This document shows positions 2,939 through 59,238 of a DNA stretch of 64,000 nt, in pieces; position 1 is the stretch's first letter; every line of letters starts with the position of its first letter. Source of the DNA: Planctomycetota bacterium. Lineage in GTDB: Bacteria; Planctomycetota; Phycisphaerae; FEN-1346. A program made the position numbers and the translations under genes. A model generated the notes under the pieces. It ran no database searches. It saw only the letters and a list, made by a program, of their open reading frames with translations, and was not told where the DNA came from. The stretch covers positions 94-64,093 of the forward strand of contig JAUVZF010000009.1 of NCBI GenBank assembly GCA_030602705.1, given 5' to 3'.

Positions 2939-3319
2939 GGCGGGACTCTCCTCATACGGCTCCTTTGGTGTTTGAGACAGGCTCCGTTGAGCCGGCATGT
3001 GGCTCAGGCGTGGCCGTCCATCCCCCGGCCGCAAAGGCGTGGGTACACACCTCTTACCAGATTCCGCCACACAAAGCAAGCCTTTTCGCAACCACTCCTG
3101 GGAGTCTGTCGGAAAACCTCGCGCCGAAACCGGTAAGTCCTTTCAGCACAAAGGCTTATGAATTCTCGGGGCCGGCTCTCCGACAGACTCCTGGGAAGCG
3201 CCCCAGACATCGTACCCCCCTGGTACGGATTCTGGCGGCGGCACCCTGGCAGGGCGAGCCCCTGGCCCGTACGGGCCGTGGCACATGAGGTGTGACTCTT
3301 TTCACGGGCGGGCGGCAGG

Positions 3320-3396
3320 GCAAAAAGGTTCCAGGAACCTTTTCCCCGAAGGGCCCGCAGGGTGCTACGCAGAAAAGGTTCCTGGAACCTTTTTGC
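3320..3396. repeat. 77-bp palindromic MITE-like element, copy 1 (GCAAAAAGGTTCCAGGAACCTTTT ... AAAAGGTTCCTGGAACCTTTTTGC flanking a 29-bp core)
   Basis: Perfect 24-bp inverted termini. The same 77-bp element recurs at 28103..28179 with the core inverted. A GGCCCGTACGGGCC hairpin lies just upstream at ~3266. Confidence 0.85.
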
Positions 3397-3499
3397 AGGG
3401 TGGCACATGGCACGGGTCTGAAAACGCTACACCGCCGGCCGTCGAGATGGTACGCTTGTGTCGGCGAGCGGCGGTTGCACGCGAGGCGCAAGATAGACC

Positions 3500-6400
3500 A
3501 TGCGTGGAGCAGGATCATCCCGTGGTTTTCTCAGCACCGCCCTCGTACTACAACGAAACTTGAGTCTTTGTGCCCGCCTGGCGGCGTGCCCAGGCCGCCA
3601 GGAACGTGTCCCAGGGCCTTTCGCGGCGGCATGGTCCAGTACGGAGGCGTATGCCGAAGGCCGCCGCGCGGGAGGCCTCGTTGTAGTGCTGGTCCTCGCT
3701 GTCCTGACGGTGGGTGTCGTGGCGGCCGAGACGGCGGCCCGAAAGCCCGGCGGCGGGCCGGCGCCGCGCGGCCTGTTTCACCCGAAGGACGCCAGGGTCT
3801 GGGACAAGTCGGGCCACAAGTTCGTCTGGCGCGACGCGTGCGGAAACAGTATGGATGACCACCGGTTGGCCGGCGGCTTCGAGTGGGAAGGCGACTCGCG
3901 CGACTTCATCGCCCTGGGCGAAGGACGGGTGCGGAACGAACGCCGCAACGGCCTCTTCATGCTCTCCTTCCCCGACGGAAACGTGCTCAGCGCCTCGTGG
4001 CCGGTTGAGTTCCCGAAGGGGCACGTCTGGCGGCTGCAGTACGCCCTCACCAACGAGGCGGCCGCGAAGACCGCCAACGGCCTCAAGTTCACCGTCGTGG
4101 CCACCGATGCCGCCGGCGACCCGCATACGCTGGTCGAGCGGGTCTTGCGGCCGCGCGACGACCGCGTCTACGACGAGCAGATCCGATTCGACTTCGACGT
4201 GCGCAAGATCACGTTCGTCCACGACAACCTCGGCAGCGAGATGTGGGACGTATTGTGGATTCTTCCCGACGGCCTCGTGATTCCCCGGGTGAGGGTGCCG
4301 GCCGGGACCGAGGCGAGTTTCACAGCCCTGCGGCGGGCCATCGAGGATTTGTGCCGCACCTTCCCCCGCGACTACCCGCGCGGCCCGGAGTTCCTGGGTC
4401 GACTGGACCAGTTCCAGAAGAGCCTTGCCGAGATAACGAAGCCCGAGGACCTGGCGAACCTGACCCGCGATTTTCTGGCGCTGCGCCGCGAGGCGCTGAT
4501 CGCGAACCCCCTCGTCAGCGGCCAGCCCATCCTCTACGTCGTCCGGCCACAGTACCGCAGCCACTATCACGCCATCGACACACTGTTTCACACGGGGGAG
4601 TTCAACGTCGACAGAAACGAGCCGCACACCAACCTGTTCCAGGGCGGCGGCGCGATGAAGACGATCGACCTCGCGCGCGGCGGCGAGGTGAAGGTCCTGG
4701 TCGACGTGCCCGCGGGCGTTGCCCGCGACCCGGAGGTGCACTTCGACGGGCAGAAAATTATCTTTGCGCTCCGCCGCAACGTGCGCGAAGACTACCACAT
4801 CTGGGAGGTGAATGCCGATGGTTCGGGCATGAAGCAACTCACGTTTGCGGCGGGCGTCTCCGACTTCGACCCCATCTACCTGCCCGACGACACGATTGTC
4901 TTCTCATCGACGCGCGAGCCGAAGTTCAATCAGTGCTCGCGCGACCACGCGGCCAACCTCTTCCGCATGGAGGCCGACGGGGCCAACATTCACCAGATCG
5001 AACGCAACAACCTGTTCGATAACCAGCCGTCGCTGATGCCCGACGGCCGCATTTTCTACGCCCGTTGGGAATATGTCGACCGCAACTTCGGCGACGCTCA
5101 CAGCCTGTGGACCGTCGGCCCGGACGGGACGAACCAGGCCGTCTTCTGGGGCAACAACACGGCCTCGCCGGGCGCGGTCTACACGGCGCGCATCCTCCCC
5201 GGCACGAACCGGGCCATCTGCATCTTCGGCCCGCACCACGACCACCTGTGGGGGGCGATGGCGATTATCGACCCGAGCCTGGGCCTCGACGGTCGCGAGC
5301 CGGTCGTCCGCATCTGGCCGCCGGAGGCCATCAACCTCATCCGCACGGGCGGCCCGTTCGACTGCGACACGTTCTCAAGGGTGCGCCTCAAGTACGCCGA
5401 CCCGTACCCGCTCAGTGACCCCGCGACGGGCCGGGGGGCAGGTAAGTACTTCCTTTGCTCTCGCAGGACCGGCCGCGGCGACCAGATGGGAATTTACCTG
5501 GTTGACGTCTTCGGCAACGAACTGCTGCTGCACGCCGAGGGGCCGGGCTGCTACGACCCGATGCCGGTCGGACCGCGGCCGCGCCCGCCGGTTGTCCCCC
5601 CGCGGCGTGACTTTTCCGGCGCCCCGGGCCTGCTTTACGTCATGGACGTGTATCAGGGGACGCACATGCGCGGGGTCGAGCGCGGAACGGTGAAGCGGCT
5701 GCGCGTCGTCGAGTCGCCCGAGAAACGGCTCTGGTCGGCCGGCAGTTGGAACGGCCAGGGCTACACCGCGCCGGGGATGAACTGGCACAGCCTCGAGAAC
5801 AAGCGCATCCTCGGCTCTGTGCCGGTCGAGGAGGACGGGTCCGCGTACTTCGCCGTCCCGTCCGACCGGTTCGTCTACTTCCAGTTGCTCGACTCCAACG
5901 GGATGATGATCCAGTCGATGCGAAGCGGCACGATGGTGCAATCGGGCGAGCGGACCGGATGCGTCGGGTGCCACGAGGATCGCCTCACGGCCCCGCCGAA
6001 CCACCGGAGCCTGGCCGTGTCGCGACCCCCGCGAAAACTGGAGCCCTGGCACGGCCCGCCGCGCCTGTTCAGTTACATGGCCGAGGTCCAGCCGGTCTTC
6101 AACCGGCACTGCCTGGGGTGCCACGACTACGGCAAGAAGGGCGCGAAGAAACTCGTCCTCGCGCCCGACCGCGACCTGACGTTCAACGCCGCCTACAACG
6201 AACTCTGGCGCAAAGGCTACACGGGCGCCGTGGGCGGCGGACCAGCCGAGATCCGGCAAGCACGCTCCTGGGGCTCGCACGCCAGCAAACTGGTGCAGGT
6301 CCTTCGCAAGGGGCACAACGACGTCAAACTCAGCCCGGAGGAGTTCGACCGCATCGTCACCTGGGTGGACCTGAACGCGCCGTACTACGCCCACTACGCG

Positions 6401-9765: not shown

Positions 9766-9934
9766 CGCTAACCCCCCGGCCGGTGCCGGTTGACCCGCGC
9801 CCAGTGTACCGGCGGGCGCCGGGCGTTTCAATGGCCGCCACGTCGTTGCCAGGTTGAAACAGCAGCACCGCGGCCAGCGTCCGTGATACTTGGCCCCCGG
9901 TGAAGATACCGGGGGCAGTGTTGCGCGCTCCTGA

Positions 9935-10044
9935 GGTTGTAGCGCCCGTACGGGCGCCCGCCCGTCAGGCCGACGGCGGTTCCGCGCCGGGGATAAACCC
10001 CGGCGCTACGGCTGTTCGGAAAGACTTCCTCGCTCCTGCCTAGT
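9935..10044. repeat. 110-bp GGGGATAAACCCC MITE-like element, copy B
   Basis: Near-identical to the inverted copy C at 41820..41929. It has terminal inverted GTAGCGCC/GGCGCTAC and an internal GCGCCCGTACGGGCGC palindrome. Confidence 0.8.
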
Positions 10045-15764: not shown

Positions 15765-15956
15765 ACCACGTACATCGGCAAGCCAGCGGCCTTACTTTAG
15801 CGGTGCAAAGGTCAATAATACCGAATGACTAATGAATGACGAAACGATAATGATGAATGGCGAAGGGCGTGGGGGGGTTCCTTTCTCGCCTCTCGCCCGG
15901 CCGGGTCGCTCGTGGCAAGTGCTGCTTCGTCATTCGTCATTGCCGTTTGATTCGTC

Positions 15957-16109
15957 GTACCTGTTTAGCGTGCTCTCGAAGCGATGTCATTTCGACCGAG
16001 CCCTCGCCAAAGGCGAGGGCGAGCGGAGAAATCTCGTCGTCCGGACACGGATAACGGCGAGATTCCTCGACTCGCTTCGCTCCCTCGGAATGACACGCTA
16101 AACACGTAC
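15957..16109 (+). mobile_element. 153-bp MITE (GTACCTGTTTAGCGTG ... CACGCTAAACACGTAC) copy 1 with 8-bp TSD GATTCGTC
   Basis: The TSD is present at 15949-15956 and 16110-16117. It is inserted inside a GACGAATG-type repeat block immediately right of the IS630. It has a central palindrome CCCTCGCCAAAGGCGAGGG. Confidence 0.9.
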
Positions 16110-16179
16110 GATTCGTCATTCGGGCTTCGTCATTCGTCATTTGCGGGCCGGCCATACGGCCCGTAGGGGAGGGCAGCGG

Positions 16180-17562: not shown

Positions 17563-18584
17563 TGGACGCGGTGCTTGAACTGCTCGATCCGTGGGGCCTG
17601 TATCTGCTGGCCCTGGTCGGCATGGCCGTCGCCGCCCTGGCCAACGGCATGGAGACGGGTCTGTACCGTCTGAACCGGATCCGGCTTCGCCTCAGGGGCG
17701 GGCAGGGCGACCGCCGCGCCGCCGTCCTGCTCGCGCTTCTGAAGGACCTGCGCGGCATGATCATCGTCTGCCTCATCGCGTACAACGGCGGCGTCTATCT
17801 GACGACGATCGTGGTGACGACGCTCGTGGCGGCGTCGGGCTGGGTCGGAACGGCCGCCGGCGTCGAGGTGTTGGCGACGGCTATCCTGACGCCGCTCTTC
17901 TTTGTCTTCACGGACGTGACGCCCAAGAGCATCTTTGTCGTGGAGGCGGACCGATGGACGTATCCGTTGGCGCATCCGATGCGGTGGGCTTATGCCCTGC
18001 TGCGGGGCGTGGGGCTGGTGCCGGCCCTTAAGGGCGTCAGCAATCTGGTGCTGCGGATCGCCAAGACCAGCGGCGCCGAGGGCGCTAACCCGTTCACACC
18101 GCGACAGCGGCTCCGGGCCGTCATCCGCGAGGGAGTGGCCGAGGGCGTCATCACAGGCTACCAGGACGAACTGGTGGAGAAGGTCCTGGGCCTGCGCGAA
18201 CGACCCGTGCGGCAGGTGATGATCCACATGAGGTACGTGGCAGCGGTTCCGGCGAACGTCAGCCGGCAGCGGTTCAGGCGGGAACTCAGCCGCCACTCCT
18301 ACACGCGACTGCCCGTCTATGAAAAGCACCGGGACAACATCGTCGGCATCGTTCGCATCAACGACGTGCTGGCCGAGGGTGGCCAGGCGTTCGACCTCTC
18401 GCGCATCATGAGCCGCGAGGTCGTCACGGTGCCGCCCGAGATGACGGTCAGCGCGGCGATGCTGCGCATGCGAGGGGCACGGGCCGCCATGGCCATCGTC
18501 CATGACGCCAGGGGCCGGGCCGTCGGCATCATTACGATCAAGGACCTCGTTGAGGAGATCGTCGGCGAATTGGCGGCCTGGTAA
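17559..18584 (+). CDS. CNNM-family DUF21 + CBS-pair membrane protein (paralog; no CorC_HlyC tail)
   Basis: ATGA overlap with the upstream gene. Begins ANGMETGLYRLNRIRLRL and carries CBS motifs. Confidence 0.75.
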   Translation: MMDAVLELLDPWGLYLLALVGMAVAALANGMETGLYRLNRIRLRLRGGQGDRRAAVLLALLKDLRGMIIVCLIAYNGGVYLTTIVVTTLVAASGWVGTAAGVEVLATAILTPLFFVFTDVTPKSIFVVEADRWTYPLAHPMRWAYALLRGVGLVPALKGVSNLVLRIAKTSGAEGANPFTPRQRLRAVIREGVAEGVITGYQDELVEKVLGLRERPVRQVMIHMRYVAAVPANVSRQRFRRELSRHSYTRLPVYEKHRDNIVGIVRINDVLAEGGQAFDLSRIMSREVVTVPPEMTVSAAMLRMRGARAAMAIVHDARGRAVGIITIKDLVEEIVGELAAW

Positions 18585-18603
18585 CGCGGCGGTTTAGCAC
18601 CGG

Positions 18604-19075
18604 TATAGCAGGGTGGCACGGCCACGCGCAGCGTGACCGTGGGCTCCTCGGCGCGATGCGGCCCACGGCCGCGTCTTCGCCGCTGCCGTGCCACCTTCCT
18701 GGCCGGGTGGCACGGCCACGCGCAGCGTGACCGTGTGCTCCTCGGCGCGACGCGGCCCACGGCCGCTGCTTCGCCGCTGCCGTGCCACCCTCCTGGCCGG
18801 GTGGCACGGTCTCGCGCAGCGTGACCGTGTGCTCCTCGGCGCGACACGGCCCACGGCCGCTGCTTCGCCGCTGCCGTGCCACCTTCCTGGCCGGGTGGCA
18901 CGGCCCCGCGCAGCGTGACCGTGTGCTCCTCGGCGCGATGCGGCCCATGGCCGCGTCTTCGCCGCTGCCGTGCCACCCTCCTGGCCGGGTGGCACGGCCA
19001 CGCGCAGCGTGACCGTGGGCTCCTCGGCGCGACACGCACCACGGCCACGCATACTGCCGCGTGACCGTGCCACCC
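18604..19075. repeat. 94-bp tandem repeat x5 (each unit bounded by GGTGGCACGG ... CCGTGCCACC inverted repeat)
   Basis: ORF-track hits every 94 nt (18688, 18782, 18876, 18970). Units differ only by scattered SNPs. The array is intergenic. Confidence 0.9.
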
Positions 19076-19178
19076 TCTGTGTCGCGCTTGCCTGCAAACC
19101 CCCGCGCCACCGTTTTTGCTTTCTCCCCATCCGGCGCCGCGCTATAATCCGGTTCCCTGTTTCCGAGGAGACCGTTTG

Positions 19179-21860: not shown

Positions 21861-22257
21861 CGAATGACGAAATCCGAATGACGAATCAAACGACAAGATC
21901 GAATGCCGAATGACAAAACGCGAGAGGCGTGATGTGCTGCTGTGGGAGTTGTTTTGGTGTTCGTCATTGCTGTTTCGTCATTCATTCGTCATTCGGGCTT
22001 CGTCATTCGGCATTGTAGTTGTAAGGCAGTTTCCTGCCGGTGTCGCTGGCCGACGGCCTGCCGTGCCAGACGTGGTGGGGAATGACGGGGGAGAAACAGC
22101 AATGACGAATGACGAATCAAACGACAAGATCGAATGCCGAATGACAAAACGCGAGAGGCGTGATGTGCTGCTGCGGGAGTTGTTTTGGTGTTCGTCATTG
22201 CTGTTTCGTCATTCATTCGTCATTCGGGCTTCGTCATTCGGCATTGTAGTTGTAAGG
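21782..22257. repeat. tandem duplication (245 + 231 bp) comprising the last ~75 nt of the upstream CDS plus a GACGAATG-type MITE (TIR CAATGACGAATGACGAA / TTCGTCATTCGGCATTG)
   Basis: The two units are near-identical. The second lacks a 14-nt ATCCGAATGACGAA. The stop codon of the CDS lies at the MITE junction. Confidence 0.85.
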
Positions 22258-26823: not shown

Positions 26824-26849
26824 CCCGGCCGCCGGGATCGCGGGTCTGA

Positions 26850-26948
26850 GATCGCCGATTTCAGATTTCAGATTTCAGATCTCAAATCCCAAATCTCAGA
26901 TTTCAGATCTCAGATTTCAGATCTCAAATCTCAGATTCCAGATTCGCG
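26850..26948. repeat. heptanucleotide microsatellite ~14 units (CAGATTT/CAGATCT/CAAATCT)
   Basis: Read from gatttcagatttcagatttcagatctcaaatcccaaatctcagatttcagatctcagatttcagatctcaaatctcagattccagatt. Confidence 0.9.
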
Positions 26949-26950
26949 GT

Positions 26951-27946: not shown

Positions 27947-28102
27947 TATGGCATCCCCTTCTTGAGCGTTTCCAGGTCTCACATGCTACCCGGCGGCTGC
28001 GATTTTTCAACCCAAATCCCGAGGCACTCGTAACGGCTCAGTTACGCGAGGGTGGCACGGCAGGTGCGAAGGGCGGCCGTGTGCGCCCCAGTGTCCAATC
28101 AG

Positions 28103-28179
28103 GCAAAAAGGTTCCAGGAACCTTTTCTGCGTAGCACCCTCCGGGCCCTTCAGGGAAAAGGTTCCTGGAACCTTTTTGC
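28103..28179. repeat. 77-bp palindromic MITE-like element, copy 2 (core inverted relative to copy 1)
   Basis: Identical 24-bp termini to copy 1. The core CTGCGTAGCACCCTCCGGGCCCTTCAGGG is the reverse complement of the copy-1 core (2 mismatches). Confidence 0.85.
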
Positions 28180-28213
28180 CTGTGGCACCCAGTGCGCCGA
28201 TGCCCCGGCGGCG

Positions 28214-39166: not shown

Positions 39167-39531
39167 CGTCGGCTCCGCCCGCAGCGCGAAGGCTTCCGCG
39201 GCGTTCGTCATTCGTTATTCGTCATTCGACATTCGCCGTAAGGCGGTCTCCCTCCCCCCACAACTTGTGGGTGAAGCGAAAAAAACCACAAAATTGTGCT
39301 TGACACCTTCTCGACGGGCGGCAGAATGGCGCTTGAGAGTGGTTCGCCCGGGCCGGTAAGCCGGTTTCACGTCGTTGCGGGTCGCCTGGCCCACAGGGGT
39401 TGCAGTAGAGGCCGAAAGGCGTTTCGCGCCTGACATGTTTCGCGCAGCGGCCACGCGCACTCGTACTGTGGGCTTGCGGCAATTGTTCCGGGAACACGAT
39501 GGGGGCTTGGTAACGAAAGGAGCGCCGAGTC

Positions 39532-40077: not shown

Positions 40078-40371
40078 CCGAAGGACGTGGCGGCACCGTC
40101 GCAAGCCGCCGGGAAAAACAGCGCTAGGAACTCTTCCAGGCGCCCGTGAGGGTATCCCCCCACTCTCGCGGGTGCCGTCTTGCGCGCATGTAGGCCGGGG
40201 CGTGCCCCGGCAGGACAGGGGAAACCGCGAAGGACGCGAAGAACGCAGAGAACGGCCAGCGGCTGGTCAACAGCATATAGGCCGGGGCGTGCCCCGGCCT
40301 ACGTATGGCAGGCCCGTCGCACACGGCGAAAAAAAAAGCACGGCCCGTACGGGCCGTGGCACACGCGGTGG

Positions 40372-40605
40372 GTCGCGGCTCGGGGCTGTTTATCGGAGCC
40401 GCGAGCGCGAGCGAGCGGGCTCGGGCGCGACCCTCCCTTCGGTCGCGGGTCGGGTCTCGGGTGTCGCGTCTCGAATCTGGTTGGTCGCGTCTCGGGGCTG
40501 TTTATCGGAGCCGCGAGCGCGAGCGAGCGGGCTCGGGCGCGACCCTCCCTTCGGTCGCGTCTCGGGTCTCGGGTGTCGCGTCTCGGATGTGGTCGGTCGC
40601 GTCTC
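40372..40605. repeat. ~118-bp tandem repeat x2 in a repeat-rich convergent intergenic region (also GGCCGGGGCGTGCCCCGGCC x2 and CACGGCCCGTACGGGCCGTG hairpins at 40190-40365)
   Basis: Duplicated unit tcgcggctcggggctgtttatcggagccgcgagcgcgagcgagcgggctcgggcgcgaccctcccttcggtcgcg... Confidence 0.8.
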
Positions 40606-40623: not shown

Positions 40624-41574
40624 CTACTCCGCCAGTTCCAGCATCTTATTGTAAAACTCGCGGTACTCGTCGCGCTGGTCGGTCTTGAGGCACGCCATGG
40701 CGGCGCGGGGGTGCTGGTTCAGGATGCCGGTAATCATGTAGGGTACCATATAGCCCCACTCGAGTTCCTTCTGCAGGGGCCGGATCGTCTCGACCACGCA
40801 ATCGAGGACCGGCCGCAGGTCGAACTTCGGGTTCTTCAGAAACCCCAGCAGCAGTTCCATCGGGCAGTTGCCTGCCGCGCGGCCGAGGCCGTAAATCGTC
40901 CCGTCAACGAAGTTGGCGTTCTTGATGATGCCCTCGATGGTGTTGGCGAAGGCCAACTGCTGATTGTTGTGCATGTGGACGCCCACCTCGCAACTCGGGA
41001 CGATTCGCTGATACTTCTGGACCAGGTAATGCACCTGCTCGCTGTAGAGCGCCCCGAACGAATCGACGACGTAACAGGCGACGACGTGGGCCTCCTTTTC
41101 CACCTGCTCCAGGGCCGGGTCGAGTTCCCAGTCCGACTCGGTCGAGATGGCCATGACGTTGATCGTGGTCTCGTACCCCCGCTCGTGGGCCACGTTCTCG
41201 ATGGCGATCGCCTTGTCGATGTCCTTGACGTAGGTGGCGATGCGGATGGTATCGACCACCGATTCGTCGGCCGGGATGATGTCGTTGGGGTCCGACTTGT
41301 GGGCGTCCATCATGACCGAGATCCTGGTGCCGGGGTTCTCGATGCCGTCGGTGGCCGCACGCAGGTCCTTCTCGTCGCAGAACCGCCACGGGCCGAACTC
41401 CTTCGGATCGAACATCTCCTTGGAGTTGCGGTAACCCAGTTCGACGTAATCGATGTGTGCCTGGCAGCAGGCCTCATAGACCGCCCGGACGGTCTGGAGT
41501 TCGAAATGCGAATCGTTCGCCAGCCCGCCGTCGCGGATCGTGCAGTCGAGTACCTTGATCTGGGGACGAAACAC
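40624..41574 (-). CDS. HMGL-like (pyruvate carboxyltransferase) family aldolase/synthase (4-hydroxy-2-oxovalerate aldolase / 2-isopropylmalate-synthase-like)
   Basis: IKVLDCTIRDGG N-terminus. TIM-barrel motifs HMHNN. Confidence 0.65.
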   Translation of the reverse strand: MFRPQIKVLDCTIRDGGLANDSHFELQTVRAVYEACCQAHIDYVELGYRNSKEMFDPKEFGPWRFCDEKDLRAATDGIENPGTRISVMMDAHKSDPNDIIPADESVVDTIRIATYVKDIDKAIAIENVAHERGYETTINVMAISTESDWELDPALEQVEKEAHVVACYVVDSFGALYSEQVHYLVQKYQRIVPSCEVGVHMHNNQQLAFANTIEGIIKNANFVDGTIYGLGRAAGNCPMELLLGFLKNPKFDLRPVLDCVVETIRPLQKELEWGYMVPYMITGILNQHPRAAMACLKTDQRDEYREFYNKMLELAE

Positions 41575-41623
41575 CGCTGTTCACCTCCGTTTCGCAAGGG
41601 CCGTCGGTCACCGCGGCGACCCG

Positions 41624-41735
41624 CCGCAAGGCCGTGCCTTTCAGTGGCGCCGCCCGCAAGCGGGCCGCAGTGTGCGGCACGAGCGGGGCATTATACACAC
41701 CATCGGCAATCGAGTGAAGGAAATGTAGCGAACAC
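41624..41735 (-). promoter_or_regulatory. ~112-bp conserved promoter/leader module, copy 1 (minus-strand sense: TTCACT-17-TATAAT then GC hairpin), immediately 5' of the HMGL-like gene
   Basis: ~95% identical to 43390..43501, which sits 5' of the BNR gene. Confidence 0.6.
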
Positions 41736-41819
41736 CCGACGATGATCGGCCCGGACCGGCAGCACCGGCCGCCGGGCGGAAAGGGGATGCGTTCTGAAGG
41801 CAGACCCGGCCGCTACGGA

Positions 41820-41929
41820 CTAAGCAGGAGCGAGAAAGTGTTTCCGAACAGCCGTAGCGCCGGGGTTTATCCCCGGCGTGGAACCGCCGTCGGCCTGACG
41901 GGCGGCCGCCCGTACGGGCGCTACAACCT
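41820..41929. repeat. 110-bp GGGGATAAACCCC MITE-like element, copy C (inverted relative to copy B)
   Basis: Reverse complement matches 9935..10044 at ~95%. Confidence 0.8.
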
Positions 41930-41968
41930 TGGGTCCACGCCAAGTCAGCCGCCGAATTCGGATTGACT

Positions 41969-43339
41969 TCATCGCTCCTGCTTAGCGACGGGCTCGAGAA
42001 ACTCGTACAGACGCAGCATATTCGGTTCGGGGAGCGGGGGCTTGCGCGGCCGGTCGCGGTTCGCCGGCAGCGTCTCCCACCGGAGGGCATATCGGATGCC
42101 GGGCGCGCCGCCCGAACCGGAATCCCCGGCCCATCGGACCTCGAGCCCCGGAAACGCGGACTCGACCTTCCCCAGTTGCTTCGGGCGCGGCCGGCCGCCC
42201 CGGTACGGGTCCGTATGGACAGGCGACCGCCCGATGTGCCTGAGCGTCGCCTCATCGACCAGGAAAAGCCCCGACCCGCGCTTGACGTGCCGGCAGGACT
42301 GGACCAGTTTGCCCTCGGGCGTGACGCGGACGCCGCCGATTCGCACCTCAGACACGATGGCCCCACCGCCGCGGAAGTCCCAGCGGTAATCCCAGTCGGT
42401 GGCCCGAGCGATCCGCCACCGGCCGCCCTCCAGCCGCGCGTTATACAACTGCGTCTTGCCCTCGGCGTCGAACTTGTGGTAACTGACGATGACGCGCCGC
42501 TTCGAGTCGAAACCCAGCACCACGTTGCCGTTGATGACACCCCCGCCAGGCGGAACCGGATCGACGATCAGGCCGGGCGTCTCGACGGTCATCGGCAGCC
42601 GAACCGTCCGGCCGGCAGCCGTCTCCCAACGGCGAAGATCCTTGCTCCGCGCGTACGACGGGTCGTGGTTGGTCGCGCAGTCGGGCGTATCGCGCCAGAC
42701 CCAGCATAAATGGAAGTACCCGTCGGGGCCCTTCACCGGCCCGTGGAGGTACGCGTTCATCCTGCCCCGACCGTCGGTCAGGGGCGAATCGAGCATGCGG
42801 CGCCACGCTTGCTTTTCGTGATCGTACACATTGTAGATCTGGTCGCCGTTTCCGCTGCCCCCGTCGCGGTAGGTGAAGATGAGTTCGTTGTCCGGGCCGC
42901 GGAAGAATCGCGGATACGTAACCCGTTTCTCCCGGGCGCCCACCATCCGGTCGACCCGCTCGAAGGCCGTGATGTCGTGCGGCCGCGCGGTCCGGAAATA
43001 CTTGAGCGGCGCGCCGTGCATGTTGCCGCTCAGGTGGACGTGCCCGTCATCGTCGACAGCCATGCGGACGGAGTTGTGGCTGTCCCAGCCGACCTTCTCC
43101 GGCAGGCGGACCAGTTGGAACCGGTCGGCCTCCAGCGTGCGTGCGCCTACGGTCATACGCCGCTCGGCATCGTAGAAGGCAACGTACTGCCGGCCGCCGT
43201 GGGTCAGGAGGTGGAATCCGACCGGATGCCCCGCCCAGACGGTGGCGATGTCGATGGTGCGTCGGATCTCGACTTCCGCCGCCGCCGGCACGGTTACCTG
43301 CGCCAGTGTCACTACCACGACAAAAACCATGATTCGCAT
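41969..43339 (-). CDS. secreted BNR-repeat-containing family protein (sialidase/glycosidase-like beta-propeller)
   Basis: Signal MRIMVFVVVVTLAQVTVPAAA. SxDxGxTW-like motifs. Confidence 0.55.
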   Translation of the reverse strand: MRIMVFVVVVTLAQVTVPAAAEVEIRRTIDIATVWAGHPVGFHLLTHGGRQYVAFYDAERRMTVGARTLEADRFQLVRLPEKVGWDSHNSVRMAVDDDGHVHLSGNMHGAPLKYFRTARPHDITAFERVDRMVGAREKRVTYPRFFRGPDNELIFTYRDGGSGNGDQIYNVYDHEKQAWRRMLDSPLTDGRGRMNAYLHGPVKGPDGYFHLCWVWRDTPDCATNHDPSYARSKDLRRWETAAGRTVRLPMTVETPGLIVDPVPPGGGVINGNVVLGFDSKRRVIVSYHKFDAEGKTQLYNARLEGGRWRIARATDWDYRWDFRGGGAIVSEVRIGGVRVTPEGKLVQSCRHVKRGSGLFLVDEATLRHIGRSPVHTDPYRGGRPRPKQLGKVESAFPGLEVRWAGDSGSGGAPGIRYALRWETLPANRDRPRKPPLPEPNMLRLYEFLEPVAKQER

Positions 43340-43389
43340 CAGAGTTCCCCTGCCCGCCGCAAGTCGAACGCCGCCGGCCCGCCCGGCCG

Positions 43390-43501
43390 CCGCAAGGCCT
43401 TACCTTTCAGTGGCGCCGCCCGCAAGCGGGCCGCAGTGTGCGGCACGAGCGGAGCATTATACACACCATCGGCAATCGAGTGAAGGAAATGTAGCGAACA
43501 C
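43390..43501 (-). promoter_or_regulatory. ~112-bp conserved promoter/leader module, copy 2, immediately 5' of the BNR-repeat gene
   Basis: See copy 1 (41624..41735). Confidence 0.6.
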
Positions 43502-43522
43502 GGCCGCTGGGGGCCGGGCCCC

Positions 43523-45265
43523 TCACGCGCCGCGTCCGGGCACGCGCACCTCGGCCAGGGTCCGTTCGACCTCTTCCTCTTTCCTGGCGTCGTCCCAACC
43601 GAGCGGGGGTGCTATGACCTCGGCCAGTTCCTGGAGCACGTCACGGCGGGCGTCGCCGAGCAGGGCGATGGTGCTGCGGCGGCAGACGAGGTCCGTGAGG
43701 TGCTCGACGTATTCGTCGGCCGCGATGCGTGCAATCTCGCCGACCGTGTAATCGGGGAGCGATTCGAGCGGCCGTTCGGCCCCGGCGTCGGCCTGCGTGG
43801 CCCAGAGGCCGGCGGCGGCGCCGTAACGGTCGAGCAGGGCGGCGAGGCGCGTCTCGTCCAGGCCCGACGCCTTCGCGGCGCTCGCGATCCACGCTTCCTT
43901 CTGCCCCGCGTCGGCCGGGAAATTCCTGCCGCCGCCGATGGGCAGGTGCGCGGTCGAGCACCGCCGCTCGGCGCCCAGGCGCTCCAGGACCCGGTCGGCC
44001 GTCTGTTCGGCGAAGGCGCGGAACGTGGTCCACTTGCCGCCGATGAGATTGTAGACGGGAAACGCCCGGTCGCCGTTCCGAAGTCTGCCCGCGGCCCGAG
44101 CCGCTTTACGGCCAGGGGACCCGTTCCGGGCCGGTTCGATGGTGCGGATGCTGTGGCCGCGGCTGACGTTGGCCAGGACCTCGCCTTCGCTTGCCGGCAG
44201 CGGCCGCACACCACAGAAGGCGAACACGATGTCTTCGCGCGACACGTCGATGCCCGGAAACACGCCGCGCAGCGTCGCAAGCATGTAGTCAATCTCGTTC
44301 TGGTCGCAGGCGGCGGTGTCGGGGTCGGCCACGCGGATGTCGGTCGAGCCCATGATCACCTTGTCCATGAACGGGAAGACGATGCAGACGCGGCCGTCGG
44401 CGTGCTGATAGTAGACCATCCGCTCGCCGATCGCTTCGTGCAGCGGGCGGCAATCGATCACCAGGTGCGAGCCCTTCGTGCCGCCCATGTACCGTGTCGG
44501 CAGGCCGAGCGTCTCGTTGGTAACGTCGATCCAGCCGCCGGTCGCGTTGGCGAGGACGCGCGGCCGGACAGCGACCGTCTCGCCGGTGACCTCGTCCTCC
44601 AGGATCACGGCGCCGTCTTCGATGCCGCGCGGCCGCACGTAGTTGATCGCGCGGCAGTTGGGATTGGCGGCGCGGGCATCCTGGATGAGTTCGATACACA
44701 GGCGCTCGGCCTGGGTAATCCAGGCGTCCCAGTACGTTGCGGTGGCGGCGATGTTCGGGTTCAGCCCCGGTATGCTTCGGAGCGACTCGTCCCTGGACGT
44801 GATGAAGTGCGTGGGCGTCCGGCGGTCTTTGCGGGTAATGAAGTCGTAGAACGCCAGGCCTATCTTGACGGGCACGACGCCCCGGCTGCCCGGTGTCACG
44901 GAGAGGCCTGAGAAGATGAGCGCCGACCGGGCCAGCCCGCCGAGATACGAGAACAGCGGCATGGTCGTCTTCAGCGGCGAGACGTAATGCGGCGCGTTCT
45001 CGAGCAGGCGGTTGCGTTCGAAGAGCGCTTCGCGGACCAGTTGGAACTCGCGGTTCTCCAGGTACCGGAGCCCCCCGTGGATCATCCGCGACGATTTGGA
45101 ACTCGCCCCGGCGACGAAGTCCGACTTGTCCACCAGCAGGCAGTCCACGCCCTGAAGCGCCAGTTCCCTGAACAACCCCGTCCCGTTCACACCGCCGCCC
45201 AGGATCAGGACGGGGACCTCGGGGTTCGCGCGGATGCCTTGGAGGGTTTGTTCTCGCGGGTTCAT
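43523..45265 (-). CDS. glpD: FAD-dependent glycerol-3-phosphate dehydrogenase
   Basis: VLILGGGVNGTG...SSKSSRMIHGGLRYL, ~580 aa. Confidence 0.8.
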   Translation of the reverse strand: MNPREQTLQGIRANPEVPVLILGGGVNGTGLFRELALQGVDCLLVDKSDFVAGASSKSSRMIHGGLRYLENREFQLVREALFERNRLLENAPHYVSPLKTTMPLFSYLGGLARSALIFSGLSVTPGSRGVVPVKIGLAFYDFITRKDRRTPTHFITSRDESLRSIPGLNPNIAATATYWDAWITQAERLCIELIQDARAANPNCRAINYVRPRGIEDGAVILEDEVTGETVAVRPRVLANATGGWIDVTNETLGLPTRYMGGTKGSHLVIDCRPLHEAIGERMVYYQHADGRVCIVFPFMDKVIMGSTDIRVADPDTAACDQNEIDYMLATLRGVFPGIDVSREDIVFAFCGVRPLPASEGEVLANVSRGHSIRTIEPARNGSPGRKAARAAGRLRNGDRAFPVYNLIGGKWTTFRAFAEQTADRVLERLGAERRCSTAHLPIGGGRNFPADAGQKEAWIASAAKASGLDETRLAALLDRYGAAAGLWATQADAGAERPLESLPDYTVGEIARIAADEYVEHLTDLVCRRSTIALLGDARRDVLQELAEVIAPPLGWDDARKEEEVERTLAEVRVPGRGA

Positions 45266-45400
45266 CTGCGTGGCTCGGTTAGCACAGGGAACGATACGGT
45301 CTTGCGCGGCGGGTCTCCGTACCCGCCGCGCTGCAGCCAAACGCGGTGGGTCAGGAGACCCACCGCGCGAGTCTCGGTCCGAACTGCGGCCTCGCCGCGC

Positions 45401-46948
45401 TCACGACGCCGCCAGGTCGGCAAGCGACGCGCTGATCTGCTTCAGCGACGGGTAGACCTGCCGGTAGACCTCGAACCGCTCGGCGTACGTCTCGGCGAGA
45501 CGGGCGTTGGGCTCGTACACGGGGCCGGGTCTGCGGACCTTCTCGAAGGCGTGGAGTTCGTCGTTGTAGATGCCGACGCCGATGCCGGCGAGCATGGCGG
45601 CGCCGAGCGGCGTGGCCTCCTCAATCTGCGGCGCCTCGACCGGCACGCCGGACACGTCGGCCTTGTTCTGCATCCAGAACGTGTTGCGTGTGGCGCCGCC
45701 GACGGCAACGATGCGCTCGGCCGTCAGCCCCAGGCCGCCCTCGACGGCCCGGAGGATATCGAGGAACTGGTAATCGAGCCCCTCGAAGATGGCGCGGATC
45801 ATCTCTGCCTTCGTGGTCATGCTGCGAAGCCCGACGAACGCCCCGCGCGACTTCGGATCGACCACCGGACACGTGCTGCCCGAGAGGTGCGGCAGAAAGA
45901 GGAGCCCGCCCGCCCCCGGCGGCGCTTCCTTGGCCGCGCCGATGAGGTAGTCCCAGTCGGTCCCGCCTTCGGTTTCGTTCCGATGCGATTCCGCCAGGCC
46001 GTACTCCTTGCGGAACCATTCGAGGCACTCGCCCGCCGGCGTGCTCGCCCACGCCGCCCACGTGCCGCGAGCCACGTGCGCCTGGACCGTCAGGCCGGTC
46101 TGCCTCAGTTGCGGCGTCAGGACGGGCTCGGGCTTCGAGGCCGAGACGATCTCCCACGTGCCCGTCACGTCGAGGACGACGCCCGGCCGGAACGCCCCCA
46201 CGGGCAGGTTGCCGCACAGATGGTCGTGGCCTCCGAGGACCACGGGCGTGCCGGCGGGCAGGCCCGTCGCCCGGGCGGCGTCGGCGGTTACTTCGCCCAG
46301 CACGGTGGTGCTCGGATGGGCGTCGGGCATGAGGCGCCGGTCGATGCCGGCAAGACCCAGCAGTTCATCCGACCAGTCGAGCGTTTTCTGGTCGAAGAGC
46401 ATCATGCACGACGCCATGCTGTAGTCGGTGGCCCGGCGCCGGCAGAGCATGAAGTTCAGGAAGTCTTCGATGAGGAGCCATGTGGCGGTGCGCGCGAGAA
46501 TCTCAGGCTCGTTCTCGGCCATCCACCGTATCCTGAGCGCCGCGTTGATGGCCCAGACGGGGTTGCCGCCGATGGAGAACGTCTTCTCGGCCCCGATGTT
46601 GGCGAGCCACCACTGGAGTTGCGGCTGGGTGCGCGGGTCGAGCCAACTGATGAACGGGTACAGCCACGTGCCGTCTTCGGCGATGGGCACGCCGTCCATG
46701 CCCATGCCGGTGACGGCTACGGCCTTGATGCGGGCGGGGTCGTCGAGGCGGCCGACGGCTTCGCGGAGCGCTTCGGCGGTGCCGCCCCAGATTTGCTGCG
46801 GCTGCCACACGGTCCAGTCGGGATGGTCGGTGTCCGGGTTGAAGCGTTCGGTCGGCCGCGCGCCGCCGGCGACCGCGTTGCCGTCGGTATCGTAGATGAC
46901 GGCCTTCAGGCTGGTTGAGCCGAGGTCGATGCCGACCAGGTAGTCCAT
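45401..46948 (-). CDS. FGGY-family carbohydrate kinase (glycerol/xylulose/rhamnulose-kinase-like)
   Basis: MDYLVGIDLGSTSLKAV. Second actin-like domain VAVGGATRN. Confidence 0.8.
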   Translation of the reverse strand: MDYLVGIDLGSTSLKAVIYDTDGNAVAGGARPTERFNPDTDHPDWTVWQPQQIWGGTAEALREAVGRLDDPARIKAVAVTGMGMDGVPIAEDGTWLYPFISWLDPRTQPQLQWWLANIGAEKTFSIGGNPVWAINAALRIRWMAENEPEILARTATWLLIEDFLNFMLCRRRATDYSMASCMMLFDQKTLDWSDELLGLAGIDRRLMPDAHPSTTVLGEVTADAARATGLPAGTPVVLGGHDHLCGNLPVGAFRPGVVLDVTGTWEIVSASKPEPVLTPQLRQTGLTVQAHVARGTWAAWASTPAGECLEWFRKEYGLAESHRNETEGGTDWDYLIGAAKEAPPGAGGLLFLPHLSGSTCPVVDPKSRGAFVGLRSMTTKAEMIRAIFEGLDYQFLDILRAVEGGLGLTAERIVAVGGATRNTFWMQNKADVSGVPVEAPQIEEATPLGAAMLAGIGVGIYNDELHAFEKVRRPGPVYEPNARLAETYAERFEVYRQVYPSLKQISASLADLAAS

Positions 46949-49339: not shown

Positions 49340-49492
49340 GTACGTGTTTAGCGTGTCATTCCGAGCGAGCGAAGCGAGTCGAGGAATCTCGCCGTTATCC
49401 ATGTCCGGACGACGAGATTTCTCCGCTCGCCCTCGCCAAAGGCGAGGGCTCGGTCGAAATGACATCGCTTCGAGAGCACGCTAAACAGGTAC
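49340..49492 (-). mobile_element. MITE (GTACCTGTTTAGCGTG family) copy 3, 153 bp, inverted, 8-bp TSD CCCTATTT
   Basis: TSD at 49332-49339 and 49493-49500. Confidence 0.9.
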
Positions 49493-56062: not shown

Positions 56063-57228
56063 GCACCGACGTTCTGGAAAAACCGAAACCTGCCGGACGG
56101 GCCGCCCGAACCGGCCCGGGCGCCAAACCGCCTGCGCGCGGCGGCGGGCCGCCCAAGGACTCCAAGGGCGGCGGCTTCCTTTGGAAGTCTCGCGTCAGCG
56201 AAGGCGCCCTGGTGCCGCTGTGCCGGCACCTTGCGGCCCTGGTGGGCAGCGGCATCAGCCTGACGGAATGCCTGAGGACGTTCGCCGAGGAGACGCCGCC
56301 CGGCACGCTGCGCCGGGTCCTGGCCGACATTATCAACGACATCGAGGCGGGGCGCAAACTCTCCGTGGCCCTTGAGCGGCACCCGGAGCATTTCTCGCCG
56401 TATTTCCGGGCGTCGATCTGGGCCGGCGAGGAAAGCGGCCAGATGCCCGAAACCCTCGACCGCCTCGCCTGCTACCTCGAAAGCAAGCAGGAGACCAGGC
56501 AGAAGATCCGCAACGCCTTCGCGTACCCGATTACGCTGATCGTGGTCATCGTCGGCGTCGTCTCGTTCCTGCTCCTGTACGTGGTTCCGGTCTTCGCGAA
56601 CGTGTACCAGCGGATGGGCGTAGGCCTGCCGCTTCCGACGCAGGTGCTGGTCGATTTCAGCGACCTGCTCATTACGTCGCCGTGGGTCCTGGCTCTGCTG
56701 GTTGGCGGCTTCATCGGGCTGCTTGCCTGGATCCGGAAGAGCCCCGCCGGACGCTTGTGGTTCGACCGGTGGAAGATCCGTGTTCCGATCGTCGGCCCGC
56801 TGCTCAAGAAGATGGTTCTCTACCGCTTCATGCGCTCCTTCGGCGAGATCATGGGCGCGGGCATCCTGGTCCTGAAGGCGCTGGACCTGGCGGGCCAGGT
56901 CACCGGCAACGAGGCCTTCATCCAGTCGCTGGGACCGGTGCGGGCGGACATTCAGCGCGGCACGGGTCTGACGGGACCGCTGCGGCGGACGGGCTGGTTC
57001 TCCCCGTCGCTTCTTCAGGTGATATCGAGCGGCGAGCAGTCCGGGCGCGTGTCCGAGTTGATGGGCCGCGCTGCCGATATCCTGAGCCGCGACGTCGACC
57101 TGACGCTGAAACGCGTCGTCGGACGGATCGAGCCGCTGCTGACGGTCGCCATGGCCCTCATCGTCGGGCTCGTCCTGTTGGCCGTGTATCTGCCGATGTT
57201 CGACGTCATGCAGCACGTAGGTAAGTGA
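56059..57228 (+). CDS. gspF: T2SS/T4P inner-membrane platform protein (GspF/PilC family)
   Basis: Two GspF repeats with three TM segments. Overlaps gspE by 4 nt. Confidence 0.85.
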   Translation: MSTDVLEKPKPAGRAARTGPGAKPPARGGGPPKDSKGGGFLWKSRVSEGALVPLCRHLAALVGSGISLTECLRTFAEETPPGTLRRVLADIINDIEAGRKLSVALERHPEHFSPYFRASIWAGEESGQMPETLDRLACYLESKQETRQKIRNAFAYPITLIVVIVGVVSFLLLYVVPVFANVYQRMGVGLPLPTQVLVDFSDLLITSPWVLALLVGGFIGLLAWIRKSPAGRLWFDRWKIRVPIVGPLLKKMVLYRFMRSFGEIMGAGILVLKALDLAGQVTGNEAFIQSLGPVRADIQRGTGLTGPLRRTGWFSPSLLQVISSGEQSGRVSELMGRAADILSRDVDLTLKRVVGRIEPLLTVAMALIVGLVLLAVYLPMFDVMQHVGK

Positions 57229-57303
57229 TGGTTCGCCCTGGCCGCGCAACGGGCGCCAGCGGGGCATGCACAGAGGAGCATGGAGTTGAAAGGAGTTGTC
57301 AGA

Positions 57304-57632
57304 TGTCCAGGAAGAGAGGTTTTACGCTGATTGAGTTGTTGCTGGTGGTTGTCATCCTGGGGCTCTTGGCTGCTGTGGCCATCCCCCGGCTGGCTGCTTC
57401 TGGGAGTGATGCGAAGAAGAATACCTGCAAGTCCAACATCGCGCTCATCAACTCCCAGATCGAACTGTGGTCCGTCAGCCACGACGGGGTGTATCCGGCC
57501 GACGCAACCGAGTTCAACGCCAACATCCTGAACAACACGGATATCTTCCCCGACGGCCCGCCGGTCTGTGGTTACGGCACCGCCTACACCTACGACACGA
57601 GTACCAAGCGTGTCGAGCCGCACAGCCACTAA
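57304..57632 (+). CDS. major pseudopilin/pilin, copy 1 (prepilin leader ...KRG|FTLIELL)
   Basis: Class III signal. Two Cys. 109 aa. Confidence 0.85.
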
Positions 57633-57789
57633 CCGCGCGTCGGCGCGGTCAATGGCGGACCACCAGTAGCCGTCCTGGCGTTGGATTGAGGGCGGAGGCT
57701 CGTGTTTTGGTACGCAACGAGGCGGCGTGCCCCCGGCCAAGTGGGGTACGCAGCCAGGCAAACTGGTCGCATTTGAAGGAGGACGCGCT

Positions 57790-58125
57790 ATGCCACGGCA
57801 TAGGAATAAGGGCTTTACCCTGATTGAGTTGCTGCTGGTGGTGGTCATACTCGGACTCTTGGCCGCCGTGGCCATTCCGAGGCTGGCCGCCTCTGCGAGT
57901 GATGCGAAGAAGAATACCTGCAAGTCCAACATCGCGCTCATCAACTCCCAGATCGAACTGTGGTCCGTCAACCACGACGGGGTGTATCCGGCCGACGCAA
58001 CCGAGTTCGGCACGAACATCCTGAACAATACGGATATCTTCCCCGACGGCCCGCCGGTCTGTGGTTACGGCACCGCCTACACCTACGACCCGAGTACCAA
58101 GCGTGTCGAGCCGCACAGCCATTAA
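57790..58125 (+). CDS. major pseudopilin/pilin, copy 2
   Basis: ~95% identical to copy 1. Confidence 0.85.
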   Translation: MPRHRNKGFTLIELLLVVVILGLLAAVAIPRLAASASDAKKNTCKSNIALINSQIELWSVNHDGVYPADATEFGTNILNNTDIFPDGPPVCGYGTAYTYDPSTKRVEPHSH

Positions 58126-58283
58126 CCGTGCTTCGCCGCGGTCAATGGCGGACCTGGAGTCGGCGCCCTGGCCTCAGATTGAGGGCGGAGGCTCGTGTTT
58201 TGGCCACGCAACGAGGCGATACGCCTCGGGCGGACTAGTGTGCGCACGCAAGTAGCCCCGGCTCATGCGAAGGAGGGCGGACG

Positions 58284-58619
58284 ATGCACATGCACAGAAA
58301 GAGGGGCTTTACCCTGATTGAGTTGCTGCTGGTGGTGGTCATCCTCGGACTCCTGGCCGCCGTGGCCATTCCGAGGCTGGCCGCCTCTGGGAGTGATGCG
58401 AAGAAGAACACCTGCAAGTCCAACATCGCGCTCATCAACTCCCAGATCGAACTGTGGTCCGTCAACCATGACGGGGTGTATCCGCCCAACGCGGGCCAGT
58501 TCAACACCAACATCATGAACAATACGGATATCTTCCCCGACGGCCCGCCCGTCTGTGGTTACGGCACCGCCTACACCTACGACACGAGCACCAAACGCGT
58601 CGAGCCGCACAGCCACTAA
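58284..58619 (+). CDS. major pseudopilin/pilin, copy 3
   Basis: ~92% identical to copy 1. Substitutions cluster in YP(A/P)(D/N)A(T/G)(E/Q)F(N/G)(A/T)NI(L/M). Confidence 0.85.
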   Translation: MHMHRKRGFTLIELLLVVVILGLLAAVAIPRLAASGSDAKKNTCKSNIALINSQIELWSVNHDGVYPPNAGQFNTNIMNNTDIFPDGPPVCGYGTAYTYDTSTKRVEPHSH

Positions 58620-58752
58620 CCGCGCGCGGGCGCGGCTGGCGGACCAGGCAAGACGGATGACCGCGTCTGACGGGTCGAATCAGGTGCCGGAGGAAAGATC
58701 GGTGTGCGGAATGTACGGCCGTCGTGAGAGCGTCGCGGACAGTGTGAGCAGG

Positions 58753-59238
58753 ATGGCGCGGGCGCGCTGGCGCTGGCGGCGTGCTCCGGCCGGCGTCACG
58801 CTCATTGAGTTGCTGGCGGTGGTCGTGATGCTCGGCCTGCTGGCGGCGGTTGCGCTGCCCCGGCTGGCCGGGGCCAACCTCTGGATGGCCGAGGGAGAGG
58901 CCGCCGCCTGCAAGTGTGCCGCCACGCTCCGCCTGGCACGGCGTATGGCCGTCGAGAACGCCCCTGACAATCCGCTGGGGTACATGGTCGTGTGTACGCA
59001 AGGGTCGTACCGGATCGTTGACCCCAAGGCGCCGGAGGCCGGCGAGGTGATCGCGCTGGCCGACGGGTGGCAGTTTGACAGGAGCGACTACGTGGTGCTG
59101 CTCGACCCATACGGCGGCGCCCGGCCGGCAGTGGGGCTGCCGGACGAACTTGTCATCCGCAAGGGTACCTACAGGTGGATTATCCACCTCGAGCCGGCCA
59201 CCGGGTACGTGTGGTACGAGCAGGGCGAGGAAAGTTAG
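58753..59238 (+). CDS. minor pseudopilin (GspH-like)
   Basis: RRAPAG|VTLIELLAVVVMLGLLAA. Confidence 0.65.
   Translation: MARARWRWRRAPAGVTLIELLAVVVMLGLLAAVALPRLAGANLWMAEGEAAACKCAATLRLARRMAVENAPDNPLGYMVVCTQGSYRIVDPKAPEAGEVIALADGWQFDRSDYVVLLDPYGGARPAVGLPDELVIRKGTYRWIIHLEPATGYVWYEQGEES

Follow-up and report, generated by a model that had tools for sequence, protein, structure and literature searches.

Why should two unrelated genes of one bacterium lie behind almost the same stretch of upstream DNA? The question is raised by a 64,000-nucleotide (nt) stretch of a Planctomycetota bacterium (Phycisphaerae, FEN-1346; assembly GCA_030602705.1, contig JAUVZF010000009.1), hereafter the window, in which a first-pass annotation had noted a ~112-bp promoter/leader module of ~95% identity (41624..41735 and 43390..43501) ahead of an HMGL-like aldolase gene and a BNR-repeat gene, and had suggested that a common factor or RNA element co-regulates the two. 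Comparison with related genomes (loci L001 to L041) points to another answer: very probably, the promoter and leader of the aldolase gene were duplicated and captured in a single lineage, in connection with the insertion of the BNR_4 gene, leaving a chimeric junction and two genes under near-identical predicted promoters.

The repeat itself is real, and slightly longer and more similar than first described. A repeat search recovered two direct copies of 115 nt, at 41621-41735 (copy A) and 43387-43501 (copy B), which are 97% identical with 3 mismatches; a pairwise alignment including the flanks, with 3 differences over the 112 nt compared, shows that similarity sets in sharply at GTGTTCGCTACATT and ends at GCGGCGG. 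The copies share the minus-strand orientation and stop 46-47 nt short of a start codon, the repeat spanning about -47 to -161 relative to either gene. Copy A precedes the HMGL-like aldolase gene (40624..41574, minus strand, 316 amino acids (aa); Pfam PF00682, 1.4e-19) and copy B the BNR_4 gene (41969..43339, minus strand, 456 aa with an N-terminal hydrophobic signal-like segment; PF15892, 6e-92), non-homologous genes that are as originally annotated. The motif TTCACT-17-TATAAT, the hairpin string GCGGCCCGCTTGCGGGCGGCGCC and CACTGAAAGG are all present in both copies. Sub-patterns of 35 and 36 nt, allowing up to 3 mismatches, match solely at these two sites in the 64 kb (0 expected from 100 shuffles). 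We rejected a misassembly artefact on two grounds: two independent ENA assemblies of a relative (L029/L030) have the same two-copy arrangement with diverged copies, and a Logan contig (L028, 100% identical) breaks within the repeat, as expected of a true repeat.

Orthologous DNA identifies the donor. Sequence orthologous to the module lies ahead of the aldolase gene in L001-L004, L008, L010, L011, L013, L015, L024, L027, L029, L033 and L041. The aldolase, which is DmpG-like although it falls below the NCBIfam cut-offs, is highly conserved in Phycisphaerae/Planctomycetota, with homologs of 316-317 aa at 65-98% identity. Because its neighbours differ from genome to genome, including in the more distant loci L036, L037, L039 and L040, we take it to stand alone, with a conserved sigma70-type promoter of its own. 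Exact-match scans with promoter k-mers agree with this assignment: a 20-mer was found at four loci among 185,579 species genomes and an 18-mer at 23 loci in JGI metagenomes, 7 of them real, the other 16 being chance matches in unrelated, AT-richer contigs that we discarded. Each contig with a real match has a single one, directly upstream of an aldolase ortholog (81-98% aa identity) and always oriented the same way. The first-pass annotation had held that further copies lacking a consistent orientation to genes would mark a plain dispersed repeat; all further copies have one orientation, upstream of an aldolase ortholog. On this comparative evidence, the module is the native promoter of the aldolase gene together with the first ~115-140 nt of its predicted 5' untranslated region (UTR).

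The promoters are predicted from a consensus scan. In copy A (41690..41718, minus strand) the -35 box TTCACT at 41713-41718 and the -10 box TATAAT at 41690-41695 are separated by a 17-nt spacer, placing the predicted transcription start near 41682-41684; in copy B (43456..43484, minus strand) the corresponding boxes, again 17 nt apart, are at 43479-43484 and 43456-43461, with a predicted start near 43448-43450. This arrangement scores 10/12 against the consensus TTGACA/TATAAT with its spacer of 16-18 nt, and the two copies are the sole sigma70-like sites between 40000 and 47200, where shuffled sequence would yield 0.5 per 7.2 kb. In the whole window (66.5% GC) there are five TATAAT hexamers, two of which lie inside the module copies.

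Conservation also favours a promoter. The core, comprising TTCACT-17-TATAAT and ~25 nt upstream, is better conserved among orthologs than the leader, and the -35/-10 block is the best-conserved portion of the module; together with the shared orientation and the equal distance to both start codons, this bears out the earlier description of a promoter-plus-leader unit. In the distant relative L003 the promoter block is 90-92% identical to that of the window, compared with 80% for the aldolase coding DNA. The ortholog alignment begins at a sharp common 5' edge, followed by a strongly conserved block, CTACATT..CTTC.C..GATTGCCGATGGTGTGTATAATGCC..GCTCG. A search with a promoter pattern itself forces conservation of the -10 box, and orthologs were therefore also fetched through the aldolase protein. 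Loci obtained in this way retain TATAAT, TATACT or TATGAT: L036 (85% identity) reads TTTACC-17-TATACT with GGTGTG just upstream, L037 (80%) reads TTCCCA-16-TATAAT with the spacer GATGGCCGAT, and L039 (75%) has TATGAT followed by a 5' hairpin. The aldolase-proximal copy of L029 (A') likewise has a sigma70-like promoter, and in L040 (68%) a promoter is no longer recognisable.

Other promoter signals were considered and set aside. A sigma54 promoter (GG-N10-GC; TGG-N9-TGC) would fit the spacing of TGGTGTGTATAATGC in the window, but the GG/GC is lost in L036 (GTATACTTCC), L037 (GTATAATCTTCC) and L039, and no upstream activator site for sigma54 is conserved in the ortholog alignment. An extended -10 (TGn) was also rejected, the TG being one position out of register and not reported by the consensus scan. 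The spacer CGATTGCCGATGG, examined by eye for an operator-like palindrome, has weak partial symmetry only.

Copy B proved to be a fusion of two sequences. Comparison with relatives extends its aldolase-leader-derived part from 115 to 139 nt (43369..43507, minus strand), a stretch that matches the aldolase upstream regions of L024/L011 at 95% and of L004 at 90%; its last ~25 nt find no match within the window because copy A has another leader-hairpin allele. The remaining part has a different history. In L031, which encodes a BNR_4 protein 83% identical to that of the window, the BNR_4 gene has no module and overlaps a GHMP-kinase gene at the stop codon of the latter, and the blastn alignment between the window and L031 reaches 43385, 46 nt upstream of the BNR_4 start and into the 3' end of the kinase gene. 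The 3' part of leader B (43340..43385, minus strand) is thus homologous to the end of that kinase gene, by alignment and by translation of the kinase C terminus, and appears to have moved along with BNR_4. Since 43369-43507 matches aldolase leaders and 43340-43385 matches the kinase 3' end, leader B is a chimera, a resident leader joined to upstream DNA from another context as promoter capture would leave it. The two homologies overlap at 43369..43385 (minus strand), a 17-nt GC-rich microhomology (CGGGCGGGCCGGCGGCG) that marks the putative recombination junction.

The event is confined to one lineage. The closest homolog of the BNR_4 protein (P0001, 94% identity) is encoded on L029/L030, which are ~94-95% identical to the window at the nucleotide level and have the order URO-D, FGGY, DAO, copy B', BNR_4, 120-nt repeat, copy A', aldolase; the duplication is therefore older than the split of the two lineages. 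Among the loci fetched, copy B is restricted to the window lineage and this one relative. Other close relatives (L024/L011, L004/L033/L034 and L002/L027), 92-97% identical in nucleotides and syntenic on both sides, lack BNR_4 and have a single module. The BNR_4 protein is related to the GH145/PL42 rhamnose-releasing enzymes BT3686 and FoRham1 (relatives in the PDB, 5MUK and 7ESK) and matches the NCBIfam BT3686 alpha-L-rhamnosidase model at 4e-56, below its cut-off.

At the other end of the inserted segment, between BNR_4 and copy A, lies a ~120-nt dispersed repeat (41819..41940) that is an inverted copy of 9923-10044 (92%) and is also present in L029. A 14-nt inverted match, CTAAGCAGGAGCGA/TCGCTCCTGCTTAG (41820-41833 versus 41973-41986), brackets this repeat and overlaps the last BNR_4 codons; the homology of BNR_4 to L031 and L032 ends at ~41989-42000, and the C-terminal ~10 residues of the protein may derive from inserted DNA. 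As a candidate signature of a miniature inverted-repeat transposable element (MITE) for the transfer of BNR_4, the 14-nt match has a right arm that is absent from the other repeat copy, at 9923-10044.

From these observations we propose the following sequence of events. In the common lineage of the window and L029/L030, BNR_4 would have left a GHMP-kinase operon and entered between an upstream sugar operon and the aldolase gene, with its 5' junction inside the aldolase leader, at the 17-nt GC-rich microhomology. It would have brought 46 nt of its old upstream DNA, now joined to the promoter and the greater part of the leader from the aldolase gene, which would itself have kept a full copy. The 139-nt duplication may have arisen by tandem duplication followed by insertion or by integration of a recombination intermediate. 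RNA polymerase with the housekeeping sigma factor would start ~7 nt past each TATAAT. The two mRNAs would have their first ~100 nt in common, and the genes would be alike in promoter strength and in their response to any regulation of the conserved -50..+10 block. By sharing one promoter, aldolase and BNR_4 are plausibly co-regulated.

Gene conversion may have kept the copies similar in part. Over 112 nt, copies A and B of the window differ at 3 positions, orthologous copies at 6-8 and the two copies of L029 (A' and B') at 10. The sequence ACACT is unique to both window copies, and a site further 3' stays orthologous (GGC in A and A' versus GGT in B and B'), a pattern that fits partial conversion between the copies in the window lineage.

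Beyond these two sites the module does not spread. A profile hidden Markov model of the 62-nt promoter block (nhmmer, filters off), run on the window and all fetched loci, matched nothing beyond the regions ahead of aldolase genes and, in the window, L029 and L030, the copies that precede BNR_4, and a scan with a 49-nt block allowing up to 24 mismatches gave no further copy. At no detectable stringency does the module behave as a multi-copy family or as a regulon motif. Of the original proposal, the promoter/leader unit shared by two unrelated genes has therefore held, as a one-off, lineage-specific duplication of the aldolase's own promoter rather than the motif of a co-regulated set.

Several considerations weigh against this account. 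The search of this genome for further copies covered 64 kb, and the 18-mer and 20-mer scans were exact-match, so that diverged copies escape them, as did copy B' of L029. In that copy (4957-5071) CATAAT replaces TATAAT, and the copy may not be strongly constrained. Promoter activity and start sites are predicted from the consensus match and conservation. We know of no experimentally established promoter consensus for Phycisphaerae. The case for gene conversion draws on very few sites and may be confounded by allele exchange between strains, given that copy A' of L029 resembles L004. Lastly, the stop codon of the DAO gene lies 21 nt before the start of copy B, no terminator was detected between them, and read-through from the upstream operon could contribute to BNR_4 expression or be its chief source.

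Other explanations would read the same DNA differently. The first concerns the slot upstream of the module. On the minus strand the window reads FGGY kinase, DAO, copy B, BNR_4, ~120-nt repeat, copy A, aldolase, where the FGGY-family sugar kinase (45401-46948; Pfam/NCBIfam) and the DAO/DAO_C FAD oxidoreductase, which is glycerol-3-phosphate-dehydrogenase-like (43523..45265, Pfam and NCBIfam, with its ATG start at 45265 set by comparison with L029), are the last members of a sugar operon of RhaT, URO-D, FGGY kinase and DAO. In L024/L011 the FGGY kinase is followed by a repetitive extragenic palindromic (REP) hairpin, the module and the aldolase gene, with no BNR_4, copy B or DAO; in L004/L033/L034 the order is DAO, REP hairpins, a convergent GH127 gene, module and aldolase, again with neither BNR_4 nor copy B; and in L002/L027 the neighbourhood upstream of the module is unrelated. 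All of these arrangements (slot coordinates 41736-45340 in the window, 601-742 in L024, 7537-9840 in L033 and >7926 in L027) have their break at the module's 5' edge. That sharp edge, (GGCGGCC)GTGTTCGC, could mark a recombination or insertion hot spot that swaps carbohydrate-active genes, the promoter-leader being a portable cassette kept uniform by gene conversion; the slot may accordingly hold GH127 (L004/L033), the PL42/GH145-like BNR_4 (window/L029), nothing (L024) or another neighbourhood (L002/L027). We regard this explanation, or the alternative that the leader carries an unrecognised, lineage-specific regulatory RNA, as unlikely. Twin GC-rich REP-like hairpins, GCGCGGTGGGT..ACCCACCGCGC and GCGCGGCGGGTACGGAGACCCGCCGCGC, occupy 45301-45371 between the FGGY kinase and DAO genes of the window, and similar hairpins are present at other intergenic spots (L004 4382-4446; L001 3730-3803; L008 1094-1172; L015 932-1002).

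The first-pass annotation had also raised a shared RNA element, and a cis-regulatory RNA in the 5' UTR (a riboswitch, attenuator or protein-binding leader) could be the selected unit, in which case the duplication would let one ligand or RNA-binding factor control the two genes. Such a role would suit long, GC-rich leaders with several hairpins. From the -10 box to the start codon there are 115 nt in A and 116 nt in B; leader A (41575..41689, minus strand), which runs to a GTG start, contains GCCGC-ACACU-GCGGC, GCCCG-CUUG-CGGGC and GGTCGC-CGCG-GTGACC hairpins and a Shine-Dalgarno GGAGG at 41584-41588 (minus strand). Two alternative sequences at one leader position, GGTCGC-CGCG-GTGACC in window copy A and L002 and GCCGG-GCGGG-CCGGC at other loci, both form a hairpin, and a GC hairpin near the predicted 5' end recurs in the distant orthologs L037 and L039. 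Against it, Rfam gave 0 matches at the gathering score in the whole 64 kb, and a permissive search of 41300-43700 returned best sub-threshold matches with E>2; the folding energies of both leaders equal those of dinucleotide shuffles (z = +0.43 and -0.06); and RNAalifold on ten leaders found no supporting covariation (term +0.31), the few two-sided changes tracing to a single event, the GC-hairpin swap in window A and L002. Among orthologs the leaders also diverge quickly and carry many indels, among them deletions in L003 and 21 nt inserted in L001, and their lengths span 92-131 nt, in contrast to the conserved promoter block. The 5' GC hairpins are equally compatible with ordinary mRNA-stabilising stem-loops, and the RNA element, for which we found no support, seems quite unlikely.

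Very unlikely, in our estimate, is that copy B is a functionally irrelevant by-product, with BNR_4 expressed as the last gene of the RhaT/URO-D/FGGY/DAO operon. Besides the short distance from DAO with no strong terminator, mentioned above, a functional fit speaks for it, as the operon includes a RhaT-type rhamnose transporter and BNR_4 is related to a rhamnosidase/rhamnose-glucuronate lyase; so does the CATAAT box of L029. On the other hand, copy B of the window keeps a perfect TATAAT and the same -35 box as A, and the 3 differences between A and B, fewer than between orthologs, suggest homogenisation or constraint rather than decay.

Hardly credible is a plain dispersed or mobile repeat of MITE or REP type that came to precede two genes by chance and does not act as a promoter, since, although the window is rich in intergenic repeats (34 direct families and 30 inverted pairs, including the REP-like hairpins at 45301-45371 and the 120-nt repeat adjoining copy A), the module has two copies only in 64 kb, is single-copy in relatives with the same ortholog always downstream in the same orientation, keeps a constant distance to the start codon and has no listed terminal inverted repeats or flanking inverted pair, and the many copies in both orientations typical of such elements were not found in the 64 kb or in the contigs of relatives.

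Promoter capture by the BNR_4 gene has known counterparts. Putative mobile promoters (PMPs; Matus-Garcia, Nijveen & van Passel 2012) were defined as upstream sequences (-150..-50) of at least 80% identity over at least 50 nt ahead of non-paralogous genes in one genome; more than 4000 families, mostly pairs, were catalogued in 2012 and proposed to rewire transcription (PMC3575422). The present pair, 115 nt with 3 mismatches at about -47 to -161, ahead of a PF00682 and a PF15892 gene and with similarity ending before the start codons, agrees with that definition in identity, length, position and non-paralogy, being likewise near-identical upstream DNA in front of non-homologous genes. Unlike in the PMP survey, which gave no mechanism, the donor here is the aldolase's own conserved promoter, the event is placed in one lineage and the junction is visible; the module itself is not linked to an insertion sequence or any other known mobile element. 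The same survey lists promoter-bearing repeats such as Correia elements, ERIC and REPINs (PMC3575422). They resemble the module as intergenic repeats from which neighbouring genes can obtain a promoter. Such elements, however, occur in many copies, have terminal inverted repeats or palindromes and move by themselves; the module occurs twice, is single-copy in relatives and lacks terminal inverted repeats. Promoter capture in Cit+ Escherichia coli is also cited there (PMC3575422). As in that capture, a resident, here predicted, promoter has been placed before a different gene and the original gene keeps a copy. The E. coli case reportedly arose in the long-term evolution experiment, where a tandem duplication is said to have made an rnk-citT fusion with a demonstrated change in expression. 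In the window, by contrast, a foreign gene segment stands between the two predicted promoter copies.

Other features of the window and its relatives were recorded alongside. The aldolase 3' UTR contains two tandem 112-nt units (40367-40590) that are 95% identical and abound in CCGAGACGCGACC-like motifs; a strong intrinsic terminator comes after them at 40339-40358 (CACGGCCCGTACGGGCCGTG + T9); judged by alignment gaps, relatives apparently have one such unit (L004, L015) or none (L029, L002, L011). Other repeat families are unusually abundant across the window. They include an inverted pair of 153 nt (15957-16109 versus 49340-49492, 97%), an 89-nt palindromic element (GGCAAAAAGGTTCCAGGAACCTTTT...; 3319-3407 versus 28092-28180), and arrays of 7-nt units of TTCGTCA and TCAGATT type and a 94-nt tandem array of 5-6 copies (examples at 15911-16141, 21959-22245, 39189-39247, 26831-26949 and 18514-19077). 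At 57212-58870, four tandem ~490-nt units with a prepilin-like N-terminal segment (GFTLIELLVVV...) form a paralogous array of type IV pilin-like genes. Two relatives that are GTDB representative metagenome-assembled genomes, L002 (CAYVAM010000107.1) and L004 (CAZIJC010000250.1), are titled 'uncultured Anaerolineales' yet match the window at 92-95% identity, and the label Phycisphaerae is attached to other relatives and to protein homologs; the Anaerolineales titles may reflect mis-binning or mislabelling.

Promoter reuse of this kind is already known, and the locus presents no new regulatory system; what it adds is mechanistic detail to a catalogue of putative mobile promoters made up mostly of unexplained pairs. 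In a bacterial group where little is known of promoters, it also provides a well-supported candidate, complete with -35 and -10 boxes and a predicted start. For these uncultured Phycisphaerae-like bacteria, it offers a clean natural example of how a newly acquired gene may gain a ready-made promoter, one in which the DNA itself reveals where the promoter came from, where the recipient gene stood before, the microhomology at which the two were joined and the lineage concerned.

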